Assembly: GCF_000027125.1 (NCBI RefSeq)
Contig: NC_017626.1
DNA length: 64,000 nt
Strand: one strand, 5' to 3'
From: Escherichia coli 042
GTDB lineage: Bacteria > Pseudomonadota > Gammaproteobacteria > Enterobacterales > Enterobacteriaceae
This document shows, one piece after another, positions 3,803 through 21,957 of this stretch. How positions within the stretch are numbered: the stretch's first letter is position 1; every line of letters starts with the position of its first letter. Made by a program: the position numbers and the translations under genes. The notes beneath the pieces were generated by a model. It worked only from the letters and a program-made list of their open reading frames with translations, ran no database searches and had not been told where the DNA came from.

Positions 3803-6800
3803 ATGGGCAAAGGAAGCAGTAAGGGGCATATCCCGCGCGAAGCGAAGGACAACCTGAAGTCCACGCAGTTGCTGAGTGTGATCGATGCCATCAGTGAAGG
3901 GCCGGTTGAAGGTCCGGTGGATGGCTTAAAAAGCGTGCTGCTGAACAGTACGCCGGTGCTGGACAGTGAGGGGAATACCAATATCTCCGGCGTCACGGTG
4001 GTGTTCCGGGCAGGCGAGCAGGAGCAGTCACCGCCGGAGGGATTTGAATCCTCCGGTTCCGAGACGGTGCTGGGTACGGAAGTGAAATATGACACGCCGA
4101 TCACCCGCACCATTACGTCGGCAAACATCGACCGTCTGCGCTTTACCTTCGGTGTACAGGCACTGGTGGAAACCACCTCAAAGGGTGACAGGAATCCGTC
4201 GGAAGTCCGTCTGCTGGTTCAGATACAGCGTAACGGTGGCTGGGTGACGGAAAAAGACATCACCATTAAGGGCAAAACCACCTCGCAGTATCTGGCCTCG
4301 GTGGTGGTGGGTAACCTGCCGCCGCGCCCGTTTAATATCCGGATGCGCAGGATGACGCCGGACAGCACCACAGACCAGCTGCAGAACAAAACGCTCTGGT
4401 CGTCATACACCGAAATCATCGATGTGAAACAGTGCTACCCGAACACGGCACTGGTCGGCGTGCAGGTGGACTCGGAACAGTTCGGCAGCCAGCAGGTGAG
4501 CCGTAATTATCATCTTCGCGGGCGCATTCTGCAGGTGCCGTCGAACTATAACCCGCAGACGCGGCAATACAGCGGTATCTGGGACGGAACGTTTAAGCCA
4601 GCATACAGCAACAACATGGCCTGGTGTCTGTGGGATATGCTGACCCATCCGCGCTACGGCATGGGGAAGCGTCTCGGTGCGGCGGATGTGGACAAATGGG
4701 CGCTGTATGTCATCGGCCAGAATTGCGACCAGTCGGTGCCGGACGGCTTTGGCGGCACGGAGCCGCGCATCACCTGTAATGCGTACCTGACCACACAGCG
4801 CAAGGCGTGGGATGTGCTCAGTGATTTCTGCTCGGCGATGCGCTGTATGCCAGTATGGAACGGGCAGACGCTGACGTTCGTGCAGGACCGACCGTCGGAT
4901 AAGGTGTGGACCTATAACCGCAGTAATGTGGTGATGCCGGATGATGGCGCACCGTTCCGCTACAGCTTCAGCGCCCTGAAAGACCGCCATAATGCCGTTG
5001 AGGTGAACTGGATTGACCCGAACAACGGCTGGGAGACGGCGACAGAGCTTGTGGAGGATACGCAGGCCATTGCCCGTTACGGTCGTAACGTCACGAAGAT
5101 GGATGCTTTTGGCTGTACCAGCCGGGGGCAGGCGCACCGCGCCGGGCTGTGGCTGATTAAAACGGAATTGCTGGAAACGCAGACCGTGGACTTCAGCGTG
5201 GGTGCAGAAGGGCTTCGCCATGTACCGGGCGATGTCATTGAAATCTGCGATGATGACTATGCGGGTATCAGCACCGGCGGGCGCGTGCTGGCGGTGAACA
5301 GCCAGACGCGGACACTGACGCTCGACCGTGAAATCACGCTGCCATCCTCCGGCACCACGCTGATAAGCCTGGTTGACGGACAGGGGAATCCGGTCAGCGT
5401 GGAGGTCCAGTCCGTCACCGACGGCGTGAAGGTAAAAGTGAGCCGGGTTCCTGATGGCGTTGCCGAGTACAGCGTGTGGGGGCTGAAGCTGCCGACGCTG
5501 CGCCAGCGCCTGTTCCGCTGCGTGAGTATCCGTGAGAATGACGACGGCACGTATGCCATCACCGCTGTGCAGCATGTGCCGGAGAAAGAGGCCATCGTGG
5601 ATAACGGGGCGCACTTTGACGGCGACCAGAGCGGCACGGTGAATGGTGTCACGCCGCCAGCAGTGCAGCACCTGACCGCAGAAGTCACCGCAGACAGCGG
5701 GGAATACCAGGTGCTGGCGCGCTGGGATACGCCGAAGGTGGTGAAGGGTGTGAGCTTTATGCTTCGCCTGACCGTGGCAGCGGATGACGGCAGTGAGCGG
5801 CTGGTCAGCACGGCCCGGACGACGGAAACCACATACCGCTTCAGGCAGCTGGCTCTGGGAAATTACAGTCTGACAGTCCGGGCGGTAAATGCGTGGGGGC
5901 AGCAGGGCGATCCGGCGTCGGTATCGTTCCGGATTGCCGCACCGGCAGCACCATCGCGGATTGAGCTGACGCCGGGCTATTTTCAGATAACCGCCACGCC
6001 GCATCTTGCGGTTTATGATCCGACTGTACAGTTTGAGTTCTGGTTCTCGGAAAATCGGATTGCGGATATCAGGCAGGTTGAAACCAGCGCGCGTTATCTT
6101 GGCACGGCGCTGTACTGGATAGCCGCCAGTATCAATATCAAACCGGGCCATGATTATTATTTTTACGTTCGCAGTGTGAACACCGTCGGCAAATCGACAT
6201 TCGTGGAGGCTGTCGGTCGGGCGAGCGATGATGCGGAAGGTTACCTGGATTTTTTCAAAGGCCAGATAACCGAATCCCATCTCGGCAAGGAGCTGCTGGA
6301 AAAAGTCGAGCTGACGGAGGATAACGCCAGCAAACTGGAGGAGTTTTCGAAAGAGTGGAAGGACGCCAACGATAAATGGAATGCCATGTGGGGCGTCAAA
6401 ATTGAGCAGACCGAAGACGGCAGGCATTATGTCGCGGGGCTTGGCCTTAGTATGGAGGATACGGAGGAAGGCAAACTGAGCCAGTTCCTGGTTGCCGCTA
6501 ACCGTATCGCGTTTATTGACCCGGCAAACGGGAATGAAACGCCGATGTTTGTGGCGCAGGGCAACCAGATATTCATGAACGAAGTGTTCCTGAAGTATCT
6601 GACGGCTCCCACCATTACCAGTGGCGGCAATCCTCCGGTATTTTCCCTGACACCGGACGGGCGGCTGACGGCGAAAAATGCCGATATCAGCGGTAACGTG
6701 AATGCGAACTCCGGGACGCTCAATAATGTCACGATTAACGAGAACTGTCGGGTTCTGGGAAAACTGTCCGCGAACCAGATTGAAGGCGATCTCGTTAAAA

Positions 6801-7198
6801 CAGTGGGCAAAGCTTTCCCCCGTGACTCCCGTGCACCGGAACGGTGGCCATCAGGGACCATTACCGTCAGGGTTTATGACGATCAGTCGTTTGACCGGCA
6901 AATTGTTATTCCAGCGGTGGCTTTCAGCGGTGCCAGACATGAACGGGAGAATAGCGATACTTATTCGTCATGCCGCCTGATAGTGAAGAAAAACGGGGCT
7001 GAAATTTATAACCGAACGGCTCTGGATAATACTCTGATTTACACGGGTGTTATTGATATGCCTGCAGGCAGTGGCGTAATGACACTGGAGTTTTCGGTAT
7101 CAGCATGGTGGGTAAATGGCTGGTATCCCACAGCAAGTATCAGCGATTTGCTGGTTGTGGTGATGAAGAAAGCCACCGCAGGCATCAGTATCAGCTGA
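3803..7198 (+). CDS. host specificity protein J (central tail fibre), lambda J-like
   Basis: 1131 aa (lambda J is 1132 aa); C-terminal region resembles the recalled lambda J receptor-binding end ([21 protein letters not shown] motif). Confidence 0.85.
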
Positions 7199-7265: not shown

Positions 7266-7865
7266 ATGCGTAAATTATGTGCTGTTATTCTGTCCGCAGT
7301 AGTCTGGCTGGTTGCCGCTGGTACGCCAGCGAGCGCAGCAGAGCATCAGTCCACACTAAGCGCCGGGTATCTTCAGGCCCATACTGATATGCCAGGCAGT
7401 GATGACCTGAAGGGCATTAACGTGAAATACCGTTATGAATTTACGGACACGCTGGGGCTGGTGACGTCATTCAGTTATGCCAATGCCAAAGATGAGCAAA
7501 AAACGCATTACAGCGATACCCGCTGGCATGAAGATTCAGTGCGTAACCGCTGGTTCAGCATGATGGCGGGGCCATCTGTACGCGTGAATGAATGGTTCAG
7601 TGCTTATGCGATGGCAGGTGTGGCTTACAGCCGTGTTTCGACGTTCTCCGGGGATTATCTCCGCGTAACTGACAACAAGGGGAAAACGCACGATGTGCTG
7701 ACCGGAAGTGATGACGATCGCCACAGCAACACGTCTCTGGCGTGGGGAGCTGGCGTGCAGTTTAACCCGACCGAATCCGTGGCCATTGATATTGCTTATG
7801 AAGGCTCCGGCAGTGGCGACTGGCGCACTGACGGTTTCATCGTGGGTGTCGGTTATAAGTTCTGA
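7266..7865 (+). CDS. lom: Lom/Ail/PagC-family outer membrane beta-barrel protein (lambda lom-like moron)
   Basis: 199 aa; signal peptide ending ASA; C-terminal ...GVGYKF aromatic terminus typical of OMPs; position between J and stf as in lambda. Confidence 0.8.
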   Translation: MRKLCAVILSAVVWLVAAGTPASAAEHQSTLSAGYLQAHTDMPGSDDLKGINVKYRYEFTDTLGLVTSFSYANAKDEQKTHYSDTRWHEDSVRNRWFSMMAGPSVRVNEWFSAYAMAGVAYSRVSTFSGDYLRVTDNKGKTHDVLTGSDDDRHSNTSLAWGAGVQFNPTESVAIDIAYEGSGSGDWRTDGFIVGVGYKF

Positions 7866-7923: not shown

Positions 7924-10305
7924 GTGGATATGGCAGCAGTAAAAATCTCAGGTGTGCTGAAAGATGGTGCGGGAAAACCAATACAGAACTGCACTATTCA
8001 ACTGAAGGCAAAGCGTAACAGCACCACGGTACTGGTGAACACGGTGGCCTCTGAAAATCCGGATGAAGCCGGGCGTTACAGCATGGATGTTGAGTATGGT
8101 CAGTACAGCGTCACCCTGCTGGTTGAAGGTTTTCCGCCTTCACATGCCGGGACCATTACCGTCTATGAAGGTTCCAGACCAGGTACGCTGAATGATTTTC
8201 TCGGTGCCATGACGGAAGATGATGTCATGCCGGAGGCATTGCGTCGTTTTGAGGAAATGGTGGAAGAAGCGGCACGCAACGCTGAAGCCGCCTCTCAGAG
8301 CGCAGCGGCGGCAAAGAAATCCGAAACTGCAGCGGCATCATCGAAGAACGCGGCGAAAACCTCAGAAACGAATGCAGCTAACAGCGCACAGGCGGCAGCG
8401 GCCTCGCAGACTGCATCGGCAAACTCCGCAACAGCAGCTAAAAAATCAGAAACCAACGCGAAAAATAGCGAGACAGCCGCAAAGACGAGCGAAACCAACG
8501 CAAAGTCCAGCCAGACGGCAGCGAAGACCAGCGAAACGAATGCCAAAGCCAGTGAAACTGCGGCAAAAAACAGCCAGGTTGCAGCAGCCCAAAGCGAGAG
8601 CGCGGCAGCCGGTTCTGCGACTTCAGCAGCTGGATCAGCAACTGCTACGGCTAACAGCCAGAAAGCTGCGAAGACGAGTGAAACTAACGCAAAGTCCAGC
8701 CAGACGGCAGCGAAGACCAGCGAAACGAATGCCAAAGCCAGTGAAACTGCGGCGAAAAGCAGTCAGGATGCAGCGGCTCAAAGCGAGAGTGCCGCAGCCA
8801 GTTCTGCAAGCGCGGCGGCTGCTTCTGCCACTGCATCAGCTAACAGTCAAAAAGCAGCAAAAACCAGTGAAACCAACGCAAAGGTGAGCGAAACAGCGGC
8901 AGCGAACTCAGCGAAAGCATCGGCAGCAAGCCAGACGGCAGCTAAAGCAAGCGAAGATGCAGCCAGAGAGTACGCAAGCCAGGCTGCGGAGCCGTATAAA
9001 TATGTCTTACAGCCGCTGCCTGATGTGTGGATACCATTTAACGATTCGCTGGATATGATTACGGGCTTTTCGCCGTCATATAAAAAAATTGTTATTGGTG
9101 ACGATGAAATAACGATGCCTGGCGACAAGATTGTTAAGTTTAAACGTGCATCGAAAGCAACCTATATTAACAAATCTGGTGTGCTGACAGAGGCTGCCAT
9201 TGACGAGCCACGATTTGAACGTGATGGCCTGCTTATTGAGGGGCAAAGAACAAACTACATGCTCAATTCGGAAAGCCCTGCCAGTTGGGGGCGATCTTCA
9301 AATATGGATGTGCCCGAAACAGGGACGGATAATTTTGGTTTTACCTATGGAAAGTTTGTCTGCAACGATTCTCTGATTGGGCAAACCTCAGCCATTAATA
9401 TGGCATCAATTGCTGCAACAAAGTCAGTTGATGTCTCAGGCGATAATAAACACGTGACAACCTCATGTCGTTTTAAAACAGAACTGCAGGTAAGGTTGCG
9501 TATCCGGTTTGATAAATATGACGGTAGCGCAACAACTTTTCTTGGTGATGCGTATATTGATACACAAACGCTTGAAATTAATATGACAGGCGGTGCTGCC
9601 TCAAGGATTACAGCGAGAGTCAGAAAGGACGAAGCTACCGGATGGATTTTTGCAGAGGCAACAATTCAGGCAATTGATGGGGAGCTAAAAATAGGCTCTC
9701 AGATACAGTATTCTCCTAAGCAGAGCGGGGCAACCGTATCTGGTGACTATATTTATCTGGCCACCCCACAAGTAGAAGATGGGCCTTGTGTATCATCTTT
9801 TATTATATCAGGAGCGACGGCGGCGACCCGCGCAAGCGATATAGTTACAGTTCCAATTAAGAATAATCTTTATAATCTTCCTTTTACGGTTCTTTGTGAG
9901 GTACATAAGAACTGGTATAAAACGCCAAATGCAGCGCCACGTGTTTTTGATACCGGCGGTCATCAAACCGGAGCGGCTATTATTCTTGGCTTCGGTCGTT
10001 CAACAGATTACGACGGATTTCCTTATTGCGATATTGGAGGAGCTAACAGACGGGTAAACGAAAACGCATCGCTTGAAAAAATGGTTATGGGGATGCGTGT
10101 AAAGTCAGAGCAGTCTACGTGCTCAGTAAGTAACGGGCATATATCCAGCGAAACAAAAACCACATGGTCCTGTATTCAGAACACCGCAATTATCCGTATT
10201 GGAGGCCAGACTACAGCCGGGTTACGTCATTTATTTGGTCATGTCAGGAATTTCAGAATATGGCACAAGGCATTGACTGATGCTCAGGTGGGGGAGTCAA
10301 TCTAA
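7924..10305 (+). CDS. side tail fibre protein (Stf-like) with collagen-like Ala/Ser/Thr repeat shaft and divergent C-terminal domain
   Basis: N-terminal ~100 aa match the recalled lambda Stf N-terminus (MA.VKISGVLKDG.GKP.QNCTIQLKA...); KTSETNAK repeat shaft; C-terminal half (from ~nt 9000) visibly lower GC. Confidence 0.75.
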   Translation: MDMAAVKISGVLKDGAGKPIQNCTIQLKAKRNSTTVLVNTVASENPDEAGRYSMDVEYGQYSVTLLVEGFPPSHAGTITVYEGSRPGTLNDFLGAMTEDDVMPEALRRFEEMVEEAARNAEAASQSAAAAKKSETAAASSKNAAKTSETNAANSAQAAAASQTASANSATAAKKSETNAKNSETAAKTSETNAKSSQTAAKTSETNAKASETAAKNSQVAAAQSESAAAGSATSAAGSATATANSQKAAKTSETNAKSSQTAAKTSETNAKASETAAKSSQDAAAQSESAAASSASAAAASATASANSQKAAKTSETNAKVSETAAANSAKASAASQTAAKASEDAAREYASQAAEPYKYVLQPLPDVWIPFNDSLDMITGFSPSYKKIVIGDDEITMPGDKIVKFKRASKATYINKSGVLTEAAIDEPRFERDGLLIEGQRTNYMLNSESPASWGRSSNMDVPETGTDNFGFTYGKFVCNDSLIGQTSAINMASIAATKSVDVSGDNKHVTTSCRFKTELQVRLRIRFDKYDGSATTFLGDAYIDTQTLEINMTGGAASRITARVRKDEATGWIFAEATIQAIDGELKIGSQIQYSPKQSGATVSGDYIYLATPQVEDGPCVSSFIISGATAATRASDIVTVPIKNNLYNLPFTVLCEVHKNWYKTPNAAPRVFDTGGHQTGAAIILGFGRSTDYDGFPYCDIGGANRRVNENASLEKMVMGMRVKSEQSTCSVSNGHISSETKTTWSCIQNTAIIRIGGQTTAGLRHLFGHVRNFRIWHKALTDAQVGESI
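8461..8900 (+). repeat. in-frame 189-bp tandem direct repeat (~2.3 copies) inside the side tail fibre gene
   Basis: CAAAGTCCAGCCAGACGGCAGCGAAGACCAGCGAAACGAATGCCAAAGCCAGTGAAACTGCGGC occurs at 8501 and 8690; unit starts near 8461, 8650, 8839. Confidence 0.75.
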
Positions 10306-10586
10306 TGAAAGATTTAACACTCAAATTTGCCGACAGGGCCGACTTTTCGGCCTTTATGGATAGCACTGGCTATTATGATGACGAGTCGATGCAGGATGAT
10401 ATTCTTATTGACGTGATAGGTAACGTGTACAAAGAAACCGGAGAACTGACTGAAGATGGCGAACCGGTATGTGTTAAGGAAGACGGATATTTTGTAAACG
10501 TGCGCATCATTAATGATTCGCAAATATCGTCATTATTCGATGAATACGTGGTTGCTGTTGAGCATCAACTTCGTGGCTGGATGTGA
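10305..10586 (+). CDS. hypothetical protein, translationally coupled to the tail fibre gene (possible fibre assembly/chaperone factor)
   Basis: 93 aa acidic protein; ATG overlaps the stf stop (TAATG); no recognised motif. Confidence 0.4.
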   Translation: MKDLTLKFADRADFSAFMDSTGYYDDESMQDDILIDVIGNVYKETGELTEDGEPVCVKEDGYFVNVRIINDSQISSLFDEYVVAVEHQLRGWM

Positions 10587-11642: not shown

Positions 11643-11665
11643 GGGGCCGAGCGCCCCGTTTTATT
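11643..11665 (+). terminator. hairpin plus T tract after the fibre gene
   Basis: GGGGCCGAGCGCCCCG followed by TTTTATT. Confidence 0.4.
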
Positions 11666-11678
11666 GGGTAGGATGAAA

Positions 11679-11972
11679 ATGGATATAACACCTTTCCTTC
11701 ATGCGCTTTGTGCTGTGGCTGCGCAGCTACTGATTGGTCTTTTTACCGGGAACTGGGCTTACGGGGCGATAGCCGGTTGTACGTTCTTCATTGCGCGTGA
11801 ACACACCCAGGCAGAATATCGCTGGATCGAAATGTTCGGGCATGGCAAGCGAATGAATATGCCGTGGTGGGGCGGTTTTGATCCGCGTGCATGGGATGTG
11901 GCAAGCCTGATGGATTTTGCTGTGCCGGTGGTGGCGTGTCTGCTGGTCTGGCTGTTGGTTAATCGTGGGTGA
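11679..11972 (+). CDS. small hydrophobic (probably membrane) protein, unknown function; prophage moron position
   Basis: 97 aa from the ATG with AGGA 6 nt upstream (longest frame from 11664); two to three hydrophobic segments; no known motif. Confidence 0.4.
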   Translation: MDITPFLHALCAVAAQLLIGLFTGNWAYGAIAGCTFFIAREHTQAEYRWIEMFGHGKRMNMPWWGGFDPRAWDVASLMDFAVPVVACLLVWLLVNRG

Positions 11973-12323
11973 AAAAAGGTGAGCTGTATATGCAACGGAG
12001 GAAGAAACCCCGTTGCTGGAAGCCTGGAAAAAGTATCGGATGCTGCTGAACCGTGTTGATACATCAACTGCACCTGATATTGAGTGGCCTACGAACCCTG
12101 TCAGGGAGTAATCATTGGGATTATGCCGCAGAAACGTTGTATGCAATAACGTTCTGCGGTTGGCTGATGCACTTTCGAGAGTGCATGTATTGAATTATTT
12201 CCAGCTATTATCGATTTTACGTATTTTTTGCATGAGAGAATTTGTACCTCCTCCCAACAACGACCTTCCATGACTTTCCGGACTTCTGTGGGCCAGCGGA
12301 CGATGCTGCCCTCGGATGTTGTG

Positions 12324-13181
12324 CTAATTGGGTGATGACAAATCCTGTGTATGGGTGTTTCCCTTTGTGCGTGCGTTGATGCTGGTAACGGTGAACGTCA
12401 TGATGAACACAACCGCGAATAAGACGACAATCGTCGGAGCTGGTGCACTGTCGATAAAAAAGGACAACCAGACACCAGTCATTGACACTATTACCGATAT
12501 GCCAATCGCCAGTAGGAGCGCAATATGAAAGCGTTGTGTCAGGAGTACCGCAATGGCGCCAGGCGCAATGAGCAGAGAAATGGAGAGAATGATACCTACC
12601 GCTTTCAGCGTCGCCACAATGGTCAGAGAGACCATGCACAGCAGCCCATAATGCAGACATCTCGTATGCAAACCGCTTACCTGCGCCTGTTGATAATCAA
12701 AGCTGAACAGCAAAAAATCCCGCCATTTTACGCTAATAACAAGTGTAACCAACCCGGCAATAATCACCGTCTGGATTATATCGCCGATGGTTACCCCGAG
12801 CATGTCGCCGAAAAGAATATGGTCAAGATGTACGTCTGGTTTGACTGCAATATACAAGATCAGACCTGCGGCAAACATGCCAGAAAAAACAATCCCCATC
12901 ACTGTATCTTGCTTGATTCGGCTGTTGTCTTTCAGGTATCCCGTCGCCACCGCGCAGAATACTCCGGCGACGAATGCCCCTGTAGCCAGAGGTAACCCCA
13001 GAATCCAGGCAAGCACGATGCCAGGAAAAACCGCATGACTCATCGCGTCACCCATCAGTGCCCAACCTTTCAGGACCAGAAAGACCGACAGCAGCGCACA
13101 GGGTATGGAAACTACCAGTGAAATCAGCAGTGCGTGACTCATAAAGGTGAACTGCAGTGGCTCCAGTAATAATGCCATCAT
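12324..13181 (-). CDS. sitD: Mn/Fe ABC transporter permease SitD
   Basis: 285 aa polytopic membrane protein; second of two paralogous permeases; 4-nt overlap with sitC. Confidence 0.85.
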   Translation of the reverse strand: MMALLLEPLQFTFMSHALLISLVVSIPCALLSVFLVLKGWALMGDAMSHAVFPGIVLAWILGLPLATGAFVAGVFCAVATGYLKDNSRIKQDTVMGIVFSGMFAAGLILYIAVKPDVHLDHILFGDMLGVTIGDIIQTVIIAGLVTLVISVKWRDFLLFSFDYQQAQVSGLHTRCLHYGLLCMVSLTIVATLKAVGIILSISLLIAPGAIAVLLTQRFHIALLLAIGISVIVSMTGVWLSFFIDSAPAPTIVVLFAVVFIMTFTVTSINARTKGNTHTQDLSSPN

Positions 13182-14035
13182 GAGCGATCCTCCAGCGCTT
13201 TATGCGCACGCCGACGATTTGCCAAAAGCCCATGGGTGGGCGCAAATACAAATGCTAAAAGAAACAGCAGTGTCTGCGCCACCACGATGATTCCACCTGT
13301 CGCGCCGTCCAGAAAGTAACTGACCCACGCGCCGAGGAAACTGGTTACACTGCCAATAGTTACAGCAATTATGAGCAGGCGGGGAAAATGATCGGTTAAC
13401 AACCATGCTGTTGCACCGGGAGTCACCACCAGACAGATCACCAGAAAGGCACCAACCGTTTGCAGCGCCGCAACGGTCGAAACCGACAGCAGGGTGAAGA
13501 AGAGGATTTTTAATCTGCCCGGATGCAATCCAATAGCACGAGCGTGATTCTCGTCGAAAAAGGTCACCATAAGATCTTTCCATTTGAAAAAAAGCACGAT
13601 GATCGAGAGAATGCCAATGATAGTGAGTTGCAGGATATCCGCCGGATCGATTGCCAGAATATTGCCCAGGACGATGGTCTGAATGTTCACGGATGTCGGG
13701 TTCAATGACACCATAAACAGCCCCAGGCCAAAAAAGGAGGAGAAGATCAGGCCGATGATGGCATCTTCTTTTAAGCGAGTGCGTTGGTTAAGAAACAGCA
13801 TGCTGCCCGCTGCCAGTCCGCCGGAAAAGAAGGCTCCCAGAGAAAACGGAAGCCCCAGCATATATGCCCCCGCAACACCCGGGACAATAGAGTGCGACAG
13901 CGCATCGCCAATCAGCGACCAGCCTTTTAGCATCAGATAGCATGACAGGAAAGCGCAGAGACCGCCGACCATCGCCGAGACCCACATCGCATTGAGCATA
14001 TATTCATAGCTGAAGGGTTCCAGTAGCACGTTCAT
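13178..14035 (-). CDS. sitC: Mn/Fe ABC transporter permease SitC
   Basis: 285 aa, ABC-3 type permease; overlaps sitB and sitD ends. Confidence 0.85.
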
Positions 14036-14859
14036 CTTGCTTCCCCCTGCACCGCTGACGGTCGATGTGCCACAAAAGGGTGTTCATCGTCAGTAATAAT
14101 GCTTTCTTCCGAGCCGTTAAGTGTGACATGGCGCAGTACGCCGCTAAAAGCCAGCTCCAGGTTCTCGGCTGTAAAAGTGGTGTCTGTCGGCCCGCTTGCC
14201 AGGACGGTGCCTTTGACCATGACCGTATAATCGCAAAATGTCGTGACTGAGCCGAGATTGTGCGTTGAGACAAGCATCGTCTTGCCTTCCGCGCGTAACT
14301 CCCTCAACAGGCTGATGATTTTCGCTTCGGTTTTCACATCAACGCCGGTAAAAGGTTCATCCAGCAGGATCACATCACCCTGCTGTGCAATCGCTCTCGC
14401 CAGAAAGACGCGTTTCTTTTGTCCACCGGAAAGCTCGCCGATTTGTCGATGGCGAAAATCCACCATATCGACACGTTCCAGCGCATCGGTGACAATCTGA
14501 CGATCCCTCTTTTTGGCTATACGCAACATACCCATGTGCCCATAGCGGCCCATCATCACCACATCTTCCACTAGTACAGGAAATGACCAGTCAACCTCTT
14601 CTGACTGAGGGACGTAGGCAACCAGGTTTTTCTGTAGCGCCTGTCGCGTGGGAATACCCAGAACAGATATCTTTCCGCTGGTCAGACGGACAAATCCCAT
14701 AATCGCTTTAAACAACGTCGATTTTCCGGAACCGTTTACCCCAACCAGAGCGGCAATAGATCCACTTGGTACTGTGAAGGATGCATCGCGCAGTGCTGTG
14801 TGCCCGTTACGCCAGGTGACAGTAACATCATTAACGACAATGCCCGCAGATTGCATCAT
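14032..14859 (-). CDS. sitB: Mn/Fe ABC transporter ATP-binding protein SitB
   Basis: 275 aa; Walker [13 protein letters not shown] signature LSGGQKKR, Walker B ILLDEP. Confidence 0.9.
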
Positions 14860-15773
14860 TATTTCTCCCTTTTCCCGGCTTTAATTCCCTGTACCAGCGT
14901 ACTGGTAGTAACCTTCAGAAGGTCGATATACGTAGGTACCGGGCCGTTTTCTGTGCTCAGGGAATCGACATAGAGTACACCGCCGTAGTGCGCGCCGGTT
15001 TCACGCGCAACCTGACGCGCTGGTTTATCGGAAATCGTACTCTCGCTAAAGACTGCCGGGATATGATTTTTCTTCACCATATCAACAACCTTACGTACCT
15101 GCTGCGGCGTGCCTTGTTGATCGGCATTAATCGGCCACAGATAAAGCTCTTTTAGCCCCAAATCGCGTGCGAGATAAGAAAAAGCCCCTTCACTGGTGAC
15201 CATCCATCGCTGATTCTCAGGGAGTTCAGCAATCTGCTTACGCAGGGGGGCAAGGGTTTGGGTAATCTTGGCTTTATAAGTATCGGCATTACGTTGGTAG
15301 GTTTGTGCATTTGCCGGATCGTATTTTATCAACGCATCACGAATATTATCGACATAAATCAGAGCATTATCTGGCGACATCCAGGCATGGGGGTTAGGTT
15401 TGCCCTCATAGGGTCCTTCGGTGATCCCTACTGGCGTCACACCCGAAGAGACAATTACTTCTGGAACCCCATTGAGATGTTGGTAAAAGCGTTGGAACCA
15501 CAATTCCAGATTCATACCATTGGCGAGAATCAGTTGTGCCCCCTGCGCACGTTTAATATCTCCAGGGGTAGGCTGATACTCATGAATTTCTGCACCAGGC
15601 TTGGTTATGGATGAGACTTCTGCAGCATCTCCAGCCACGTTTTTGGCCATATCCGCGATGATGGTAAATGTTGTAATGACCTTGAATTTTTCAGTTGCAC
15701 TTGCCTGAAATGCGATCGAGCAGGTGAGGGCGAGGCACCCCAAGAGCATGGTTACTTTTTTTATTGAGTGCAT
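14859..15773 (-). CDS. sitA: periplasmic Mn/Fe-binding protein SitA (cluster 9 / TroA-like)
   Basis: 304 aa with signal peptide; first gene of a four-gene co-directional operon. Confidence 0.85.
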
Positions 15774-15804
15774 AATTTAGTACCTATAGTGAGCAAAATT
15801 AGAA

Positions 15805-15828
15805 AAAACATAGCAACAGCTATGTTTT
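15805..15828 (-). promoter_or_regulatory. MntR-type operator upstream of sitA
   Basis: Palindrome AAAACATAGC-AACA-GCTATGTTTT, 32-55 bp upstream of the sitA start; matches the recalled E. coli MntR box (AAACATAGC...GCTATGTTT). Confidence 0.6.
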
Positions 15829-15849
15829 ATAGCATAAGCCATGCAAAAT

Positions 15850-15868
15850 GAAAATGATTATCATTAGC
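15850..15868 (-). promoter_or_regulatory. Fur box-like site upstream of sitA
   Basis: GAAAATGATTATCATTAGC resembles the Fur consensus GATAATGATAATCATTATC, ~80-95 bp upstream of sitA. Confidence 0.5.
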
Positions 15869-15981
15869 GGTTGTGGGCCCAACACAGGGATTAGGTTGTT
15901 TCCTGCTGGCGATGTGGTATTGAGGAAAAAATTAGGGCAGCTATTAGGCTTTGAAATGACTTTATGAGGAGAATTGTTGAT

Positions 15982-16032
15982 GGCAAAAATGGGGCAAAGC
16001 GCTGCAAAAGGGGCAAAAAAGGGGCAAAAAAA
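15982..16032 (+). repeat. short tandem GGGGCAAA(A) repeats (4-5 copies)
   Basis: GGCAAAAA, GGGGCAAAG, GGGGCAAAAAA, GGGGCAAAAAAA in tandem; overlap a 22-codon Lys-rich mini-ORF (15980-16048) with a GAGGA SD 9 nt upstream. Confidence 0.4.
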
Positions 16033-16331
16033 GAGTGGGTTATCGTAGCTTATTGTTGTCGCTGATGATGTTTAACACATTGAAAAATAAGTAAAATACT
16101 TATGAGTCAGAGAGTTGTGATTTTTGCCCTTACTTGTTCAGATTGTATTGTTCTTTCTTACTAATTTCTTGATTTTGCGACATTTAAAAGCGACTCAATT
16201 CGTTATATGGCATCAGAAGAGTATGCGTCATGCCGGAAAGCCCAGCATAAGAAATCTGATATAAAAACTGTGGCGTGTATGGTACGGATTAGAGGGGAAA
16301 ATGTCAGCACATTTGCGAAATGAATCAAAAA

Positions 16332-16351
16332 GCCCGCAGCAATGTGCGGGC
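16332..16351 (-). terminator. hairpin immediately downstream of uspF
   Basis: GCCCGCA-CATTGC-TGCGGGC on the minus strand followed by TTTTTGATT. Confidence 0.5.
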
Positions 16352-16358
16352 GTTAGTG

Positions 16359-16874
<516 letters not shown>

Positions 16875-16933
16875 TTAGATCAAAGGAGGAAGAATAAGCA
16901 GAAAAAGCCCGCCATAACAGCGGGCAGGAGGAT

Positions 16934-18067
16934 TTAGAACTGATAAACCAGACCTAAAGCGACAATATCATCGGTAGAGATGCCGTTGGCAGCGTAGAAG
17001 CTGTCATCTTCATCCAACAGGTTGATTTTATAGTCAACATAGGTGGACATGTTTTTATTGAAATAGTAAGTCGCGCCAACATCGGCGTATTTAACCAGAT
17101 CTTTATCATCAACACCTGCCGGGTTGTCTGCACCACCGGCAGCGTGCAGGTCACGGCCTTTAGACATCAGGAAAGAGACTGCCGGACGCAGACCAAAATC
17201 AAACTGGTACTGTGCAGTAACTTCAAAGTTCTGGGTTTTGTTTGCAACAGCATAATCGCTGTCGCCAAACGGGGTCATATTACGCGTTTCTGAATACATG
17301 GTTGCCAGGTAAATATTGTTAGCATCGTATTTTAGCCCAGCAGTCCACGCGTCTGCTTTATCACCACCCGCCGCAGTATGGTTAACCTGGTCATTGGTGC
17401 GGTCAGAAGAGGTGTATGCCGCACCAGCGCTAAAGCCCATGCCTAAATCATATGTTGTGGAAAGACCCCAGCCGTCACCGTTTTCATGGCGAACATCACG
17501 TCCGTTGTTGGTGCCTTCCTGACCATTACTGGCACCTTCGTTGTTACCTTGATACTGCACCGCGAAGTTCAGACCATTTACCAGACCGAAGAAATCAGTA
17601 TTACGATAAGTCGCGACGCCATTGGCACGACCAGTCATAAAGTTGTCTGCATTGGTATAAGAGTCACCGCCAAATTCAGGCAGCATATCGGTCCAGCCTT
17701 CGATGTCGTACATTACGCCATAATTACGTCCGTAATCGAAAGAACCGTAATCTGCAAATTTCAATCCGGCAAATGCCAGACGGGTCCATGACTGGTTTTT
17801 TGAGGATTCAGTGTTGTTTGCCTGAATATTGTATTCCCATTGACCGTAGCCAGTGAGTTGATCGTTAATTTGCGTTTCGCCTTTAAAACCCAGACGCGCA
17901 TAGCTCTGGTCGCCATCTTTCGCTGAATTATCAGAAAAATAATGCAGGCCATCAACTTTGCCATACAGATCTAATTTGTTGCCGTCTTTATTATAAACTT
18001 CGGCTGCATGTGCAGCACCTGCGGCGAGCAGGGCAGGAATTAAAAGTGCCAGTACTTTGCTTTTCAT
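16934..18067 (-). CDS. ompN: outer membrane porin OmpN
   Basis: 377 aa general porin (OmpC/F family); signal peptide; C-terminal ...LVYQF. Confidence 0.85.
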
Positions 18068-18294
18068 TGAATAAATCCTTTAGTTATTTTATTTGCCTTT
18101 TATCCCCATTTCGGGGAGTGAAAACATCCTAAAGGAGATGTTCAGTTAGCCGATAAATATCATTTGTTACGCCTTAAGTAAAACCTTAATCAAATAATTC
18201 TTCTGAAATGATAATAAGTCTGGTGAATGTATTGGAGATAATACATACAAAATAAAAATTATACTTTTAATTTGCTATACGTTATTCTGCGCGG

Positions 18295-18404
18295 GTTATA
18301 TGCCTTTATTGTCACAGATTTTATTTTCTGTTGGGCCATTGCATTGCCACTGATTTTCCAACATATAAAAAGACAAGCCCGAACAGTCGTTCGGGCTTTT
18401 TTTT
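18295..18404 (+). ncRNA. micC: MicC small regulatory RNA
   Basis: Sequence GTTATATGCCTTTATTGTCACAG...GCCCGAACAGTCGTTCGGGCTTTTTTTT matches the recalled MicC; terminator hairpin plus T-run; located between ompN and ydbK as in K-12. Confidence 0.8.
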
Positions 18405-18432
18405 AGAATTGGATAATTCTTATCCAGAGCAT

Positions 18433-21400
18433 TTAATCGGTGTTGCTTTTTTCCGCTTTTCCGGCCATTTGTGCCAGGAAGTCATAGCGTTTTTGCAAAT
18501 CAGCTGCAGCATCTTTCCATAACTGTTCTGCCACTTCTGGCTGCTGCGAATTCAGACGACGGAAACGTTGCTCATGCAGTAACGTTTCTTCCAGTGCTTC
18601 TGACGGCGGGCGTGAATCCAGTGCCAGCGGCAGTTTGCCTTCATCGGCTCGACGTGGATCGAAGCGATATAGCGGCCAGAAGCCGGTGGCAGTGAGTTGG
18701 CGCATCTGGTCGTGACTGAGTGCCAGATCGTAACCATGCTCTTCACACGGGCTATAAGCGATGATCAGCGATGGTCCCGGATACGCTTCTGCTTCCTGAA
18801 TCGCTTTCACTGTCTGGTTCAGCTGTGCACCAAGAGAAATTTGCGCCACATAAACATGACCGTACATCATCATACTGACGCCAAGATCTTTACGCGCTTT
18901 ACGTTTGCCATGCTCGCCAAACTTAGTTACTGCACCCAGCGGTGTCGCTTTCGACGCCTGACCACCGGTGTTGGAATAGCATTGCGTATCCAGCACCAGA
19001 ATGTTGACGTTTTCCGTCAAACTCAATACATGATCCAGACCGCCAAAGCCGATATCGTAAGCCCAGCCGTCGCCACCAATCAGCCAGATTGATTTTTCCA
19101 CCAGTGCATCTGCGTCACGTAGCAGTTCATGTGCTTCGGCAACATCTTTGAGTTGCTGGCGTAAAGCTGCAACCTGTTCACGACGAACCTCTGGCGTGGC
19201 GTCTGATTTCAACGCAGTCAGTAATTCCGCCGGGATTTTATCGGCAAATTGATCCAGCAGACGCAGCACGCGGACACGGTGTTGATCGACCGTCAGGCGG
19301 AAACCAAGGCCAAATTCGGCGTTATCTTCAAACAGCGAGTTCGCCCATGCCGGTCCACGACCGTTGGCATCGGTAGTATACGGTGTAGAGGGCAGGTTAC
19401 CGCCATAAATTGAAGAACATCCGGTGGCGTTAGCGATCAACATTCGGTCGCCATAGAGCTGAGTCAGCAATTTAATATACGGCGTCTCGCCACAACCGGA
19501 GCAAGCACCTGAATATTCAAACAGCGGTGTAATCAGCTGCGATGTACGAATATCAATACGTTCCAGTTTGCTACGGTCGATTTCTGGGAGGTTGAGGAAG
19601 AAATCGTAATTGATTTTCTCTTCTTCGACATGTTCCAGGCGCGACATCATATTGATGGCTTTGATCTCTGGATTCTGACGGTCTTTCGCCGGGCAAACTT
19701 CGACGCACAGGTTACAGCCGGTGCAATCTTCCGGTGCCACCTGCAAGACATATTTCTGCCCGCGCATATCACGCGATTTCACATCCAGCGAATGCAGGCT
19801 GGCAGGGGCGTTTTCCATCGCTTCAGGCGGTACCACTTTTGCGCGAATAGCGGAGTGTGGGCAAGCAGCGACGCAGTGGTTACATTGGGTACAGAGTTCC
19901 TCTTTCCAGATGGGGATCTCTTCGGCGATATTGCGTTTTTCCCAGCGCGTAGTGCCCATCGGCCAGGTGCCGTCTGGCGGCAGCGCCGAAACGGGGAGGG
20001 CATCACCAAGCCCGGCGAGCATCGCCGCGGTTACGGTTTTCACGAAATCAGGGGCGGCATCGGAAACCACTGGCGGTCGATTGGCGCTGTGCGGATTTAC
20101 TGGTTGCAGCGGAACTTCTTCTACGGATTCACGTGCCAGCGCCAGAGCCTGCCAGTTGCGTTCCACCAGATCCTGACCTTTGCTACTGTAACTTTTGGCA
20201 ATCGCACCCTGCAATTCTGCGAGGGCGCTATCGCCAGGCAGAATTTGCGTAAGATGGAAAAAAGCCATCTGCATGACGGTATTAATACGGGCTGCCAGGC
20301 CACATTCGCGGGCGATTTTCGCCGCGTTAATCACATAGAAGCGCGCTTTTTTCTGGTTTAACACGGCCTGAACTTCCTGCGGCAAGCGCGACCATACTTC
20401 ATCTGCGCTGTACGGCGTGTTGAGCAGGAAAATGCCGCCAGGTTTTAAACGTTCAGCCATCTGATATTTATCGATAAACTGCAACTGGTGGCAGCCAACA
20501 AAATCAGCCTGGGAAATGAGATAAGCGGAACGAATCGGCTGCTCACTCACGCGAAGGTGAGAAACCGTCAGGCCGCCCGCCTTTTTGGAGTCGTAAACAA
20601 AATAGCCCTGTGCGTACCACGGCGTGGAATTACCGATAATCTTGATATTGTTTTTGGTCGCGGAAACGCTGCCATCACTACCAAGGCCATAAAACAAGGC
20701 TTCAAGTTTCGCCGAGTTTGGCAGGGTGTTTTCCGGCAACGGTAGTGACAGATTGGTCACATCATCATAAATACCAACCGTAAAGCGCGCTTTCGGTTTA
20801 GCCGCGTTGAGCTCGGCAAATACCGCCAGTACACAGTCCGGGCCAAATTCTTTGGATGAAAGACCATAGCGCCCACCAATGACACGGGGCAGGGTTTCGC
20901 GCTCGCCATTATTAAAGGCTTCTGCCAGTGCAGTCATCACATCCAGATAGAGCGGTTCTGCCTGGGCACCGGGTTCTTTGGTTCTGTCCAGTACCGCCAC
21001 GCTGCGTACGGATCCCGGTAGAGCTTGTAGCAAGTGTTTGGCGGAGAAGGGACGGTACAGGCGAACTTTCAGCACGCCGACTTTTTCGCCACGGGTTAGC
21101 AATTCATCAACCACTTCTTCACAGGTGCCAATGGCAGAGCCCATCAGGATAATCACCCGTTCCGCTTGCGGATGCCCGTAATACTCAAACGGCTGATACT
21201 GACGACCTGTCGCGGCAGCGAAATCATTCATCGCCTGTTCAACATGGTCGTAAACTGCGTTGTACCACGGGTTGGTGGCTTCACGTGACTGGAAGTAGGT
21301 GTCCGGGTTAGCCGAGGTACCGCGAATCACCGGATGCTCCGGATTCAGCGCGCGGGCGCGATGAGCATCAATTTCGGCCTGCGGCATCAGTTCCAGAATC

Positions 21401-21957
21401 GTGTCATCGGCCAGCGGGACAATTTTATTGATTTCGTGGGACGTGCGGAAACCATCAAAGAAATGAATAAATGGAACGCGGCTTTTCAGCGTCGCGATGT
21501 GCGAAATGAGAGCAAAGTCTTGCGCTTCCTGGACGTTAGCCGCACACAACATCGCGCAACCCGTCTGGCGCACCGCCATAACGTCGGAATGATCGCCAAA
21601 AATAGAGAGTGCATGTGTGGCAACGGTACGTGCCGCTACATGCAGGACAAATGGCGTCAGTTCGCCTGCCAGTTTGTACAGCGTCGGGATCATCAGCAAC
21701 AAACCCTGCGATGACGTAAACGATGTTGAAAGGGCACCCGTCTGCAAAGCGCCATGCACGGTAGCGATAGCCCCCGCTTCCGACTGCATTTCAACCACGC
21801 GTGGTGTGTCTCCCCAAACGTTCTTCAAGCCGTTTCCGGCCCATGCATCAGCCTGTTCTGCCATCGTGGAACTGGGGGTAATAGGGTAGATGGCGATAAC
21901 TTCACTGGTGCGAAACGCCACCGAAGCAACCGCGCCATTACCGTCAATAGTAATCAT
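18433..21957 (-). CDS. ydbK: pyruvate:flavodoxin/ferredoxin oxidoreductase (PFOR, NifJ-like)
   Basis: 1174 aa; two 4Fe-4S Cys clusters (CTQCNHCVAACP, CTGCNLCVEVCP); TPP-binding region. Confidence 0.9.
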   Translation of the reverse strand: MITIDGNGAVASVAFRTSEVIAIYPITPSSTMAEQADAWAGNGLKNVWGDTPRVVEMQSEAGAIATVHGALQTGALSTSFTSSQGLLLMIPTLYKLAGELTPFVLHVAARTVATHALSIFGDHSDVMAVRQTGCAMLCAANVQEAQDFALISHIATLKSRVPFIHFFDGFRTSHEINKIVPLADDTILELMPQAEIDAHRARALNPEHPVIRGTSANPDTYFQSREATNPWYNAVYDHVEQAMNDFAAATGRQYQPFEYYGHPQAERVIILMGSAIGTCEEVVDELLTRGEKVGVLKVRLYRPFSAKHLLQALPGSVRSVAVLDRTKEPGAQAEPLYLDVMTALAEAFNNGERETLPRVIGGRYGLSSKEFGPDCVLAVFAELNAAKPKARFTVGIYDDVTNLSLPLPENTLPNSAKLEALFYGLGSDGSVSATKNNIKIIGNSTPWYAQGYFVYDSKKAGGLTVSHLRVSEQPIRSAYLISQADFVGCHQLQFIDKYQMAERLKPGGIFLLNTPYSADEVWSRLPQEVQAVLNQKKARFYVINAAKIARECGLAARINTVMQMAFFHLTQILPGDSALAELQGAIAKSYSSKGQDLVERNWQALALARESVEEVPLQPVNPHSANRPPVVSDAAPDFVKTVTAAMLAGLGDALPVSALPPDGTWPMGTTRWEKRNIAEEIPIWKEELCTQCNHCVAACPHSAIRAKVVPPEAMENAPASLHSLDVKSRDMRGQKYVLQVAPEDCTGCNLCVEVCPAKDRQNPEIKAINMMSRLEHVEEEKINYDFFLNLPEIDRSKLERIDIRTSQLITPLFEYSGACSGCGETPYIKLLTQLYGDRMLIANATGCSSIYGGNLPSTPYTTDANGRGPAWANSLFEDNAEFGLGFRLTVDQHRVRVLRLLDQFADKIPAELLTALKSDATPEVRREQVAALRQQLKDVAEAHELLRDADALVEKSIWLIGGDGWAYDIGFGGLDHVLSLTENVNILVLDTQCYSNTGGQASKATPLGAVTKFGEHGKRKARKDLGVSMMMYGHVYVAQISLGAQLNQTVKAIQEAEAYPGPSLIIAYSPCEEHGYDLALSHDQMRQLTATGFWPLYRFDPRRADEGKLPLALDSRPPSEALEETLLHEQRFRRLNSQQPEVAEQLWKDAAADLQKRYDFLAQMAGKAEKSNTD

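Follow-up and report, generated by a model that had tools for sequence, protein, structure and literature searches.

In a 64,000-nt stretch of the genome of Escherichia coli 042 (NCBI RefSeq assembly GCF_000027125.1, contig NC_017626.1), called here in its whole length the window, we analyzed the interval from 11679 to 12323 of a lambdoid prophage, which holds a hydrophobic open reading frame (ORF) of 97 codons and, between it and the sit genes, a shorter open frame. It forms the right border of a receptor-binding (side tail fiber) cassette that can be exchanged. The 97-codon ORF is an intact gene under purifying selection, encoding a three-helix inner-membrane protein of the family phrog_1443, whose genes tend to adjoin those of receptor-binding proteins in siphovirus, myovirus, and podovirus lineages. 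The shorter frame is the dead 3′ end (11991 to 12111; codons 156 to 194) of a tail fiber assembly gene, tfa, and is designated tfa′ below; the sit cassette was joined separately, ~190 bp to its right. RefSeq and the phage 21 record already list both features. As a structural and evolutionary account, tfa′ is very probably a scar of tail fiber cassette exchange, not of sit acquisition. The locus as such is ordinary phage mosaicism, and the tfa stub is a textbook mosaic scar.

The 97-aa frame runs from an ATG at 11679 to a TGA at 11970 to 11972. The ORF list has it as 11664 to 11972, opening at an upstream TTG; homologs and PGAP use the ATG. The protein (WP_000355602.1; its phage 21 counterpart, CPT_21_24, is annotated as a "putative membrane protein") matched the profile of phrog_1443, a family of unknown function, with residues 1 to 96 on profile positions 1 to 96 of 97 (E = 5.8e-59), and an environmental relative matched the same family. 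Homologs form 575 clusters at 90% identity, almost all of 95 to 102 aa and all unnamed, and 423 matches were found among 50%-identity representatives. Among 5,426 complete E. coli genomes, 1,867 have the gene, and many of these carry it at least twice. Across 48 distinct alleles, the ratio of nonsynonymous to synonymous substitution rates (dN/dS) is about 0.14. An alignment of 106 members has R40, E41, and W72 invariant and H8, Q44, A45, E46, R58, and P83 conserved in at least 90%, and a polar cluster of H8, R40, E41, Q44, E46, R58, W72, and D79 is near-invariant from E. coli to Aeromonas and Comamonas. Homologs from Comamonas, Aeromonas, Leclercia, Salmonella, and Citrobacter carry many synonymous changes and few replacements at the motif codons. 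We rejected RNA-level constraint as the cause of the near identity of the central part of the ORF among E. coli phages: since synonymous change is abundant in the distant genera, the identity within E. coli reflects mosaic recombination and protein-level selection.

An AlphaFold2 model with a predicted local distance difference test (pLDDT) score of 97 has helices at residues 4 to 23, 26 to 53, and 74 to 96, and the Kyte-Doolittle profile has hydrophobic spans at 4 to 23, 26 to 39, and 74 to 96. An earlier note on this DNA, made from the letters and a list of ORFs, had described a hydrophobic 97-aa ORF here, and the start and stop codons, the hydrophobicity profile, and the model agree with that description. 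Five of the six lysine and arginine residues lie in the loop from 40 to 73, which suggests an N-in, loop-in, C-out topology. With this predicted topology, H8, R40/E41, and D79 would share one membrane interface. Three members of the family (P0147, P0194, and P0258; 140 to 146 aa) have a soluble insertion of ~45 residues in the loop that joins the REx(T/A)QAEYR and NMPWWGGF motifs.

Relatives of phrog_1443 almost always sit directly 3′ of fiber or tailspike genes in lambdoid, P2-like, P22-like, epsilon15-like, and environmental phages. At E. coli lambdoid loci, the gene upstream of the ORF encodes a 346-aa or a 227- to 234-aa fiber with a Peptidase_S74 (S74) domain, or it is a 92-aa gene that follows stf. 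The relatives in P2-like prophages of Leclercia and Aeromonas salmonicida stand directly after a tail fiber gene, with a 0-nt gap or overlapping ends, and those from Salmonella, Citrobacter, a metagenome-derived (JGI/Logan) locus (P0056), and an ENA contig directly after a pectate-lyase or GDSL tailspike gene. The Comamonas relative follows gpJ, and that of Halomonas phage phiHAP-1 overlaps the stop codon of a tfa. A distant subfamily was collected from 79 environmental viral loci (search alignment of 10 sequences), where mostly an ORF of 300 to 800 aa ends within ~10 nt of the family gene; where recognizable, the domains of these ORFs are of the beta-helix, pectate-lyase, S74, or endosialidase type. 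At E. coli loci, the membrane protein is 94 to 100% identical while the upstream fibers are unrelated, and this constancy argues for a host-directed and against a fiber-specific role.

Two coliphages place the family gene in slots of known use. In P22-like vB_EcoP-611R6, the relative is beside an OafA-type O-acetylase gene, between tailspike and int, and in epsilon15-like EC.W1-9 it lies between the tailspike and the holin-endolysin genes. In such phages (P22, Sf6, epsilon15, and phiV10), these slots are the usual sites of O-antigen conversion genes. The membrane ORF of vB_EcoP-611R6 is preceded by a 114-nt 3′ stub of the same S74 fiber gene as in the window, with its terminator (L185, 3800 to 4400). 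This is a second kind of scar and points to an ORF that moves as a cassette with its upstream flank.

The open frame from which tfa′ was recognized, 11983 to 12108, is bounded by TGA at 11980 to 11982 and TAA at 12109 to 12111. The earlier note had reported it as stop-bounded upstream, which it is, and as lacking any start codon, which overstates the case: there is no start at the 5′ end, but a TTG at 12013 (opening a 32-aa ORF) and an ATG at 12040 are in frame. Its reading of the frame as the 3′ remainder of a gene without its 5′ part was right. The frame matches Pfam Caudo_TAP (PF02413) at positions 95 to 130 of 131 (E = 2e-16) and keeps the final 39 of the 194 codons, and the stop, of a lambda/Rac-type tfa, that is, the conserved C-terminal helical segment only. 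It is identical at 37 of 39 positions (95%) to residues 156 to 194 of the intact 194-aa Tfa of SPF_0923 and is homologous to Mu U 112 to 174 (PDB 5YVQ). In RefSeq, PGAP lists 11992 to 12111 as an incomplete pseudogene, "tail fiber assembly protein," missing the N terminus. Homology to intact tfa genes (SPF_0923, HK630/lambda, and PhiR29_1) starts at 11991, with possibly weak homology, including a 1-nt deletion, back to about 11981. Examined as a candidate full Tfa, the locus has neither the N-terminal fiber-binding domain nor a complete ORF of ~175 to 195 aa with a start; the DNA upstream is the membrane ORF. Tfa proteins are modular, with a variable N-terminal fiber-binding domain and a conserved C-terminal trimerizing helical domain (PMC9608196). 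Since tfa′ is without the working, fiber-binding part, a chaperone function is not expected of it, and since the upstream fiber has an S74 chaperone of its own, loss of tfa was plausibly tolerated. Fusion of the membrane ORF to tfa′ by frameshifting or read-through at the A-run at 11973 to 11978 was considered and rejected: the tfa′ frame is interrupted by the TGA at 11980, and the third frame runs no further than 12049.

The joint between the membrane ORF and tfa′ is widespread. It occurs in 1,724 of the 5,426 complete E. coli genomes, and the full ORF-tfa′-spacer-sitD arrangement in 173. Of 80 IMG/VR prophage records, 21 with fewer than 60 nt after the ORF were left out, and in 41 of the 59 informative loci the junction string is identical. 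Most of the 21 short records (within L017 to L096) are 4,294 nt long and end 3 nt past the last matched codon of the ORF; the prediction pipelines probably cut there because sit and the DNA beyond look bacterial. Phage 21, 2G7b, PhiR49_2, and many infant-gut lambda phages have the same joint, followed by varying cargo (sit, a ybcY-like methyltransferase gene, or dinI). This one joint is thus combined with fiber genes of at least three kinds upstream, with at least six tfa′ 3′ alleles, and with different cargos. The tfa′ remnants have several different 3′ endings, as would be expected if homologous exchange had taken place repeatedly in the conserved 3′ end of tfa, and a few are degraded further.

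We propose that illegitimate recombination once took place within tfa and attached a fiber cassette with the membrane gene at its end. With an intramolecular chaperone built in, the S74 fiber of this cassette would be expected to do without Tfa. The joint would since have spread by homologous recombination, with the conserved tfa 3′ end and the downstream hairpin as the right-hand homology arm, which would explain one joint beside varied fibers, tfa′ alleles, and cargos. Some points weigh against a single event. The single origin of the joint rests on sequence identity, and phage Ayreon (L097, 2900 to 3200) has a tfa 3′ remnant with a similar breakpoint after a side tail fiber gene without the membrane ORF, so that this part of tfa may break repeatedly.

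The earlier note had taken the start-less frame for a recombination or deletion junction made as the tail module acquired the sit operon. That the frame marks recombination stands; that the recombination was the one with sit is very unlikely. The idea has some appeal from position, as sitD is just 212 bp past the fragment, and in phage 21 and Lambda_2G7a sit abuts a further-truncated tfa′ at 12048 with TGCTG microhomology, so that in this lineage a sit-associated event did cut the remnant. The 5′ truncation that removed 155 tfa codons, however, is on the other side, beside the membrane ORF, and the window retains the complete tfa 3′ end, the hairpin, and 190 bp of backbone ahead of the sit cassette. 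The joint also exists without sit: comparing prophages with and without sit, as the earlier note had proposed, gave an identical joint in 2G7b, PhiR49_2, and 41 of the 59 informative IMG/VR loci, which are sit-less or carry other cargo. Finally, an intact 194-aa tfa with the same 212-bp spacer and sitD is found in 272 complete E. coli genomes and in "phage" SPF_0923, which indicates that sit acquisition did not truncate tfa. The earlier note had also allowed for both features turning out to be conserved intact genes, and this holds for the membrane ORF but not for the fragment.

Even less probable is a tfa′ that still functions, either through the 32-aa peptide from TTG 12013 (after GGAGGAAG) or as an IS009-like small RNA. 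The in-frame TTG and ATG and an upstream GGAGG are present, most remnants keep the reading frame, and positions 11970 to 12068 give a subthreshold match to Rfam IS009 (RF02111; E = 1e-13). The match scores 62.8 bits against a gathering threshold of 117 and covers part of the model with large deletions, and the model has no base pairs and contains tfa 3′ sequence. The IS009 model was seemingly made from tfa 3′ sequence, so that a prophage hit to it probably signals a tfa gene or remnant and not a small RNA. The remnant lacks the fiber-binding N-terminal domain, is shortened in phage 21, is frameshifted, truncated, or replaced at four further loci (L029, L059, L063, and L069), and is absent from ~18 of the 59 informative IMG/VR loci, while retention of the frame is expected anyway if remnants keep recombining with intact tfa alleles. 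Exchange of the tail fiber cassette therefore remains our account of tfa′.

The left boundary of the sit cassette was located near 12295 to 12304, with homology to plasmid-borne sit beginning at 12295/12304, and the segment common with phage 21 is 12304 to 15969 (97.5% identity). The DNA between tfa′ and this boundary is lambdoid backbone. Its hairpin (fold energy −23.7 kcal/mol, z = −3.8) is common to lambda, HK630, HK97, and the dinI-flanking regions of Stx phages, and other lambdoid phages have a homolog of 12139 to 12229 between tfa and dinI. We considered and rejected a dinI 3′ remnant at 12230 to 12295: similarity to dinI-bearing phages ends at the dinI stop, and only intergenic DNA is common. 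Phage 21 and Lambda_2G7a are without 12049 to 12303. Their tfa′ is cut at 12048, segments 11670 to 12048 and 12304 to 15969 abut in phage 21, and a homolog of 12142 to 12277 is on the far side of sitA; microhomologies TGCTG and TGAAAT are found at the joints. In the window, the DNA missing from these two phages lies between the copies of an 8-nt direct repeat, GATGCTGC, at 12039 and 12302. The same 3.67-kb sit cassette (12304 to 15969 in the window, 4877 to 8657 in L002, and 852 to 4632 in L008) thus occupies two positions, either by two insertions or by deletions from a duplicated ancestor: in the window and SPF_0923 it follows 12303, and in phage 21 and 2G7a it lies within tfa′ at 12048. The SPF_0923 record (ON032529.1, "Salmonella phage") extends into chromosomal uspF and ompN and is 98.75% identical to the window over 4.4 kb; this host flank and identity suggest a prophage region of E. 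coli type rather than the genome of a packaged phage. sitABCD has been reported on 70% of infant-gut lambda phages (Mathieu et al. 2020, PMC6969025).

Genomic context is the sole clue to what phrog_1443 does. Searches of Pfam, NCBIfam, PADLOC, and PDB and fold comparison gave no match that assigns a function, and neither the window protein nor four relatives matched catalogued defense or exclusion proteins in PADLOC-DB at E ≤ 1. Our literature search yielded no more than the phage 21 genome announcement and the report of sitABCD as a common lambda moron, and nothing under the accessions or family names.

From this context, we tentatively consider an envelope or exclusion role linked to receptor binding, which is possible although short of an even chance. 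Late-transcript read-through would coexpress the membrane protein with the fiber genes. The protein would target the host envelope, not the fiber itself, and its effect would be linked to receptor use, through superinfection exclusion or through alteration of a surface polysaccharide receptor. Q-antiterminated late read-through is established lambdoid biology. Our promoter scan found no sigma-70-like site in the 13 nt between the terminator at 11643 to 11665 and the ATG, although consensus scans can miss weak promoters, and late read-through would accordingly be the simplest expectation. A more specific version is slightly less likely: the invariant His/Arg/Glu cluster at the predicted membrane interface might act on an envelope component, for instance in lipid-linked polysaccharide synthesis or export, and so alter or mask the receptor, which would make phrog_1443 a new class of exclusion or conversion protein.

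Several observations count against these readings of topology and context. The topology rests on only five loop K/R residues, and the phage 21 record has a different TMHMM/SignalP result. One relative stands by itself in the Aeromonas rivipollensis chromosome, where the neighborhood has no phage genes, and another is in a nonphage mobile region. Adjacency to receptor genes could simply reflect a recombination-prone module boundary. Many environmental phages, moreover, couple the family gene translationally to small membrane proteins and an endolysin; in L157 (4986 to 6251) and its relatives, the order is tailspike, family gene, membrane proteins of 55 and 61 aa, and a lysozyme-like endolysin, with overlapping start and stop codons.

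This last arrangement bears on whether the 97-aa protein is a lysis cassette component (a holin, antiholin, or similar) carried along with fiber cassettes from phages with post-tailspike lysis genes. The protein is small with three hydrophobic helices, in the environmental relatives start/stop coupling links its gene to two for small membrane proteins and one for a lysozyme-like endolysin, and the relative in EC.W1-9 is upstream of holin and endolysin genes. The same phages, however, already have separate holin-like genes between the family gene and the endolysin, and in lambdoid, P2-like, and P22-like phages the family gene is far from the lysis genes; the neighbors in the window are the S74 fiber and tfa′/sit genes, and no endolysin adjoins. 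In Pfam and PHROG, the family gave no holin match except for a weak one to Phage_holin_8 in 1 of the 106 members (E = 0.004). The protein ends in LLVNRG and has no charged hydrophilic C-terminal tail of the kind usual in holins, its 34-residue polar loop varies less between genera than would be normal in a holin, and the stand-alone chromosomal copy in Aeromonas speaks against a lysis role, which we consider unlikely. It is likewise improbable that the ORF is a self-contained moron, expressed from the prophage for lysogenic conversion independently of the fiber operon. The earlier note had raised a moron, for example one for superinfection exclusion, as a speculation. A terminator upstream and a hairpin downstream would set it apart, it lies in a cargo-rich arm beside sit, and the relative in the P22-like phage adjoins O-acetylase and int genes. 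The downstream hairpin, which follows the ORF and tfa′, has no U-run and is not a called terminator. The moron reading would call for a promoter where the scan found none, and in phage 21, P2-like prophages, and most environmental phages, tight or translational coupling ties the family gene to the structural gene before it. We therefore keep an envelope role tied to receptor use as the working proposal.

The features of the prophage arm are collected in Table 1. The 346-aa fiber directly upstream of the ORF has a C-terminal S74 intramolecular chaperone domain (Pfam PF13884, E = 5e-14), is a full-length member of phrog_4563 ("tail fiber protein"), and is named "tail fiber domain-containing protein" by PGAP. 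The terminator-like hairpin between this gene and the ORF has a fold energy of −10.1 kcal/mol and accompanies the membrane ORF in ~35 related loci and a P22-like phage. Further upstream, the Stf-type fiber gene has at about 8200 to 8900 a long A/S/T/K/E/N-rich stretch of near-repeats (AAKTSETNAKSSQTAAKTSETNAKASETAAK), and its homolog in UPEC132 is broken into pseudogene pieces. The place after stf is taken by a 92-aa gene instead in phage 21, PhiR49_2, and Stx-phage relatives; this 93- or 92-aa gene may be the accessory or chaperone gene of the fiber in cassettes without tfa. Antisense and overlapping ORFs of the interval had no PHROG match. To the right of sit (15774 to 21957) are uspF, ompN, and ydbK/nifJ, which shows that the prophage occupies the Rac (Rac/ttcA) position, as in strain KK19-02. 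The same fiber-ORF-tfa′-sit arm is found in an icd-integrated prophage of UPEC132, so the arm moves between prophages with different integration sites.

Table 1. Features of the prophage arm around the interval, in window positions
Feature	Coordinates	Strand	Basis or remark
gpJ	3803 to 7198		lambdoid tail region
lom	7266 to 7865		
Stf-type fiber	7924 to 10305		
93-aa gene	10305 to 10586		phrog_1361 (unknown function), after stf
Distal side tail fiber gene, 346 aa	10596 to 11636	+	directly upstream of the 97-aa ORF
Intrinsic-terminator-like hairpin GGGGC-CGAGC-GCCCC, then GTTTTATT	11643 to 11665	+	terminator scan
Membrane-protein gene, 97 aa	11679 to 11972	+	phrog_1443
Breakpoint interval TGAAAAAAGGTGAGCTGTAT/ATGCAACGG of the ORF/tfa′ joint	11973 to 11990	no strand	alignments
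tfa′ pseudogene	11991 to 12111	+	Pfam Caudo_TAP, PGAP
Left copy of 8-nt direct repeat GATGCTGC	12039 to 12046	+	read from sequence
Backbone spacer, tfa′ to sit	12112 to 12303	no strand	homology to other lambdoid phages
Hairpin, 15-bp stem	12125 to 12160	no strand	directly downstream of tfa′
Right copy of 8-nt direct repeat GATGCTGC	12302 to 12309	+	left edge of sit cassette
sitDCBA cargo cassette	12304 to 15969	-	genes 12324 to 15773; sitD 12324 to 13181; convergent with tail fiber operon

The analysis moves the joint between sit cargo and phage backbone to about 12304, not within tfa. The part worth pursuing is phrog_1443, a very common, strongly conserved family linked to receptor genes and present in about one-third of complete E. 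coli genomes, for which phage 21, a classical laboratory phage, is a ready genetic system. If the family does control receptor availability or exclusion, this would matter for host range prediction and for engineering by tail fiber swaps.

Phage 21 is also the closest known system. It integrates in icd, unlike the window prophage, which is next to uspF-ompN. Its genome (GenBank OL657228; Feiss et al. 2022, PMC9119081) encodes CPT_21_24 (UMO75439.1), 96% identical to the window protein, and has an ORF/tfa′ joint identical to that of the window and a sit cassette with 97.5% identity. It differs in that window positions 12049 to 12303 are missing, so that sitD is 91 bp after the ORF, and in that the ORF follows the 92-aa gene, whereas the ORF of the window follows the S74 fiber gene and terminator. 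The likeness to Tfa/TfaR of lambda and Rac (PF02413; Mu U, 5YVQ) is confined to the last 39 residues, 95% identical to an intact Tfa, and the downstream hairpin; 155 N-terminal codons, including the fiber-binding domain, are missing from tfa′. With the candidate small RNA IS009 (RF02111), which is prophage-associated, tfa′ has tfa 3′ sequence in common, at about half the gathering threshold. For the membrane gene, the comparison is with conversion and exclusion genes that lie beside receptor-binding genes, such as O-antigen acetylase and gtr genes of P22-like phages, the post-tailspike genes of epsilon15, and cor/llp of phi80/N15 and T5. These occupy the same slot as phrog_1443, directly 3′ of the receptor-binding gene, but the 97-aa protein has no sequence or fold similarity to their products. 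Cor and Llp are lipoproteins of the outer membrane; the 97-aa protein is predicted to be a three-helix protein of the inner membrane.

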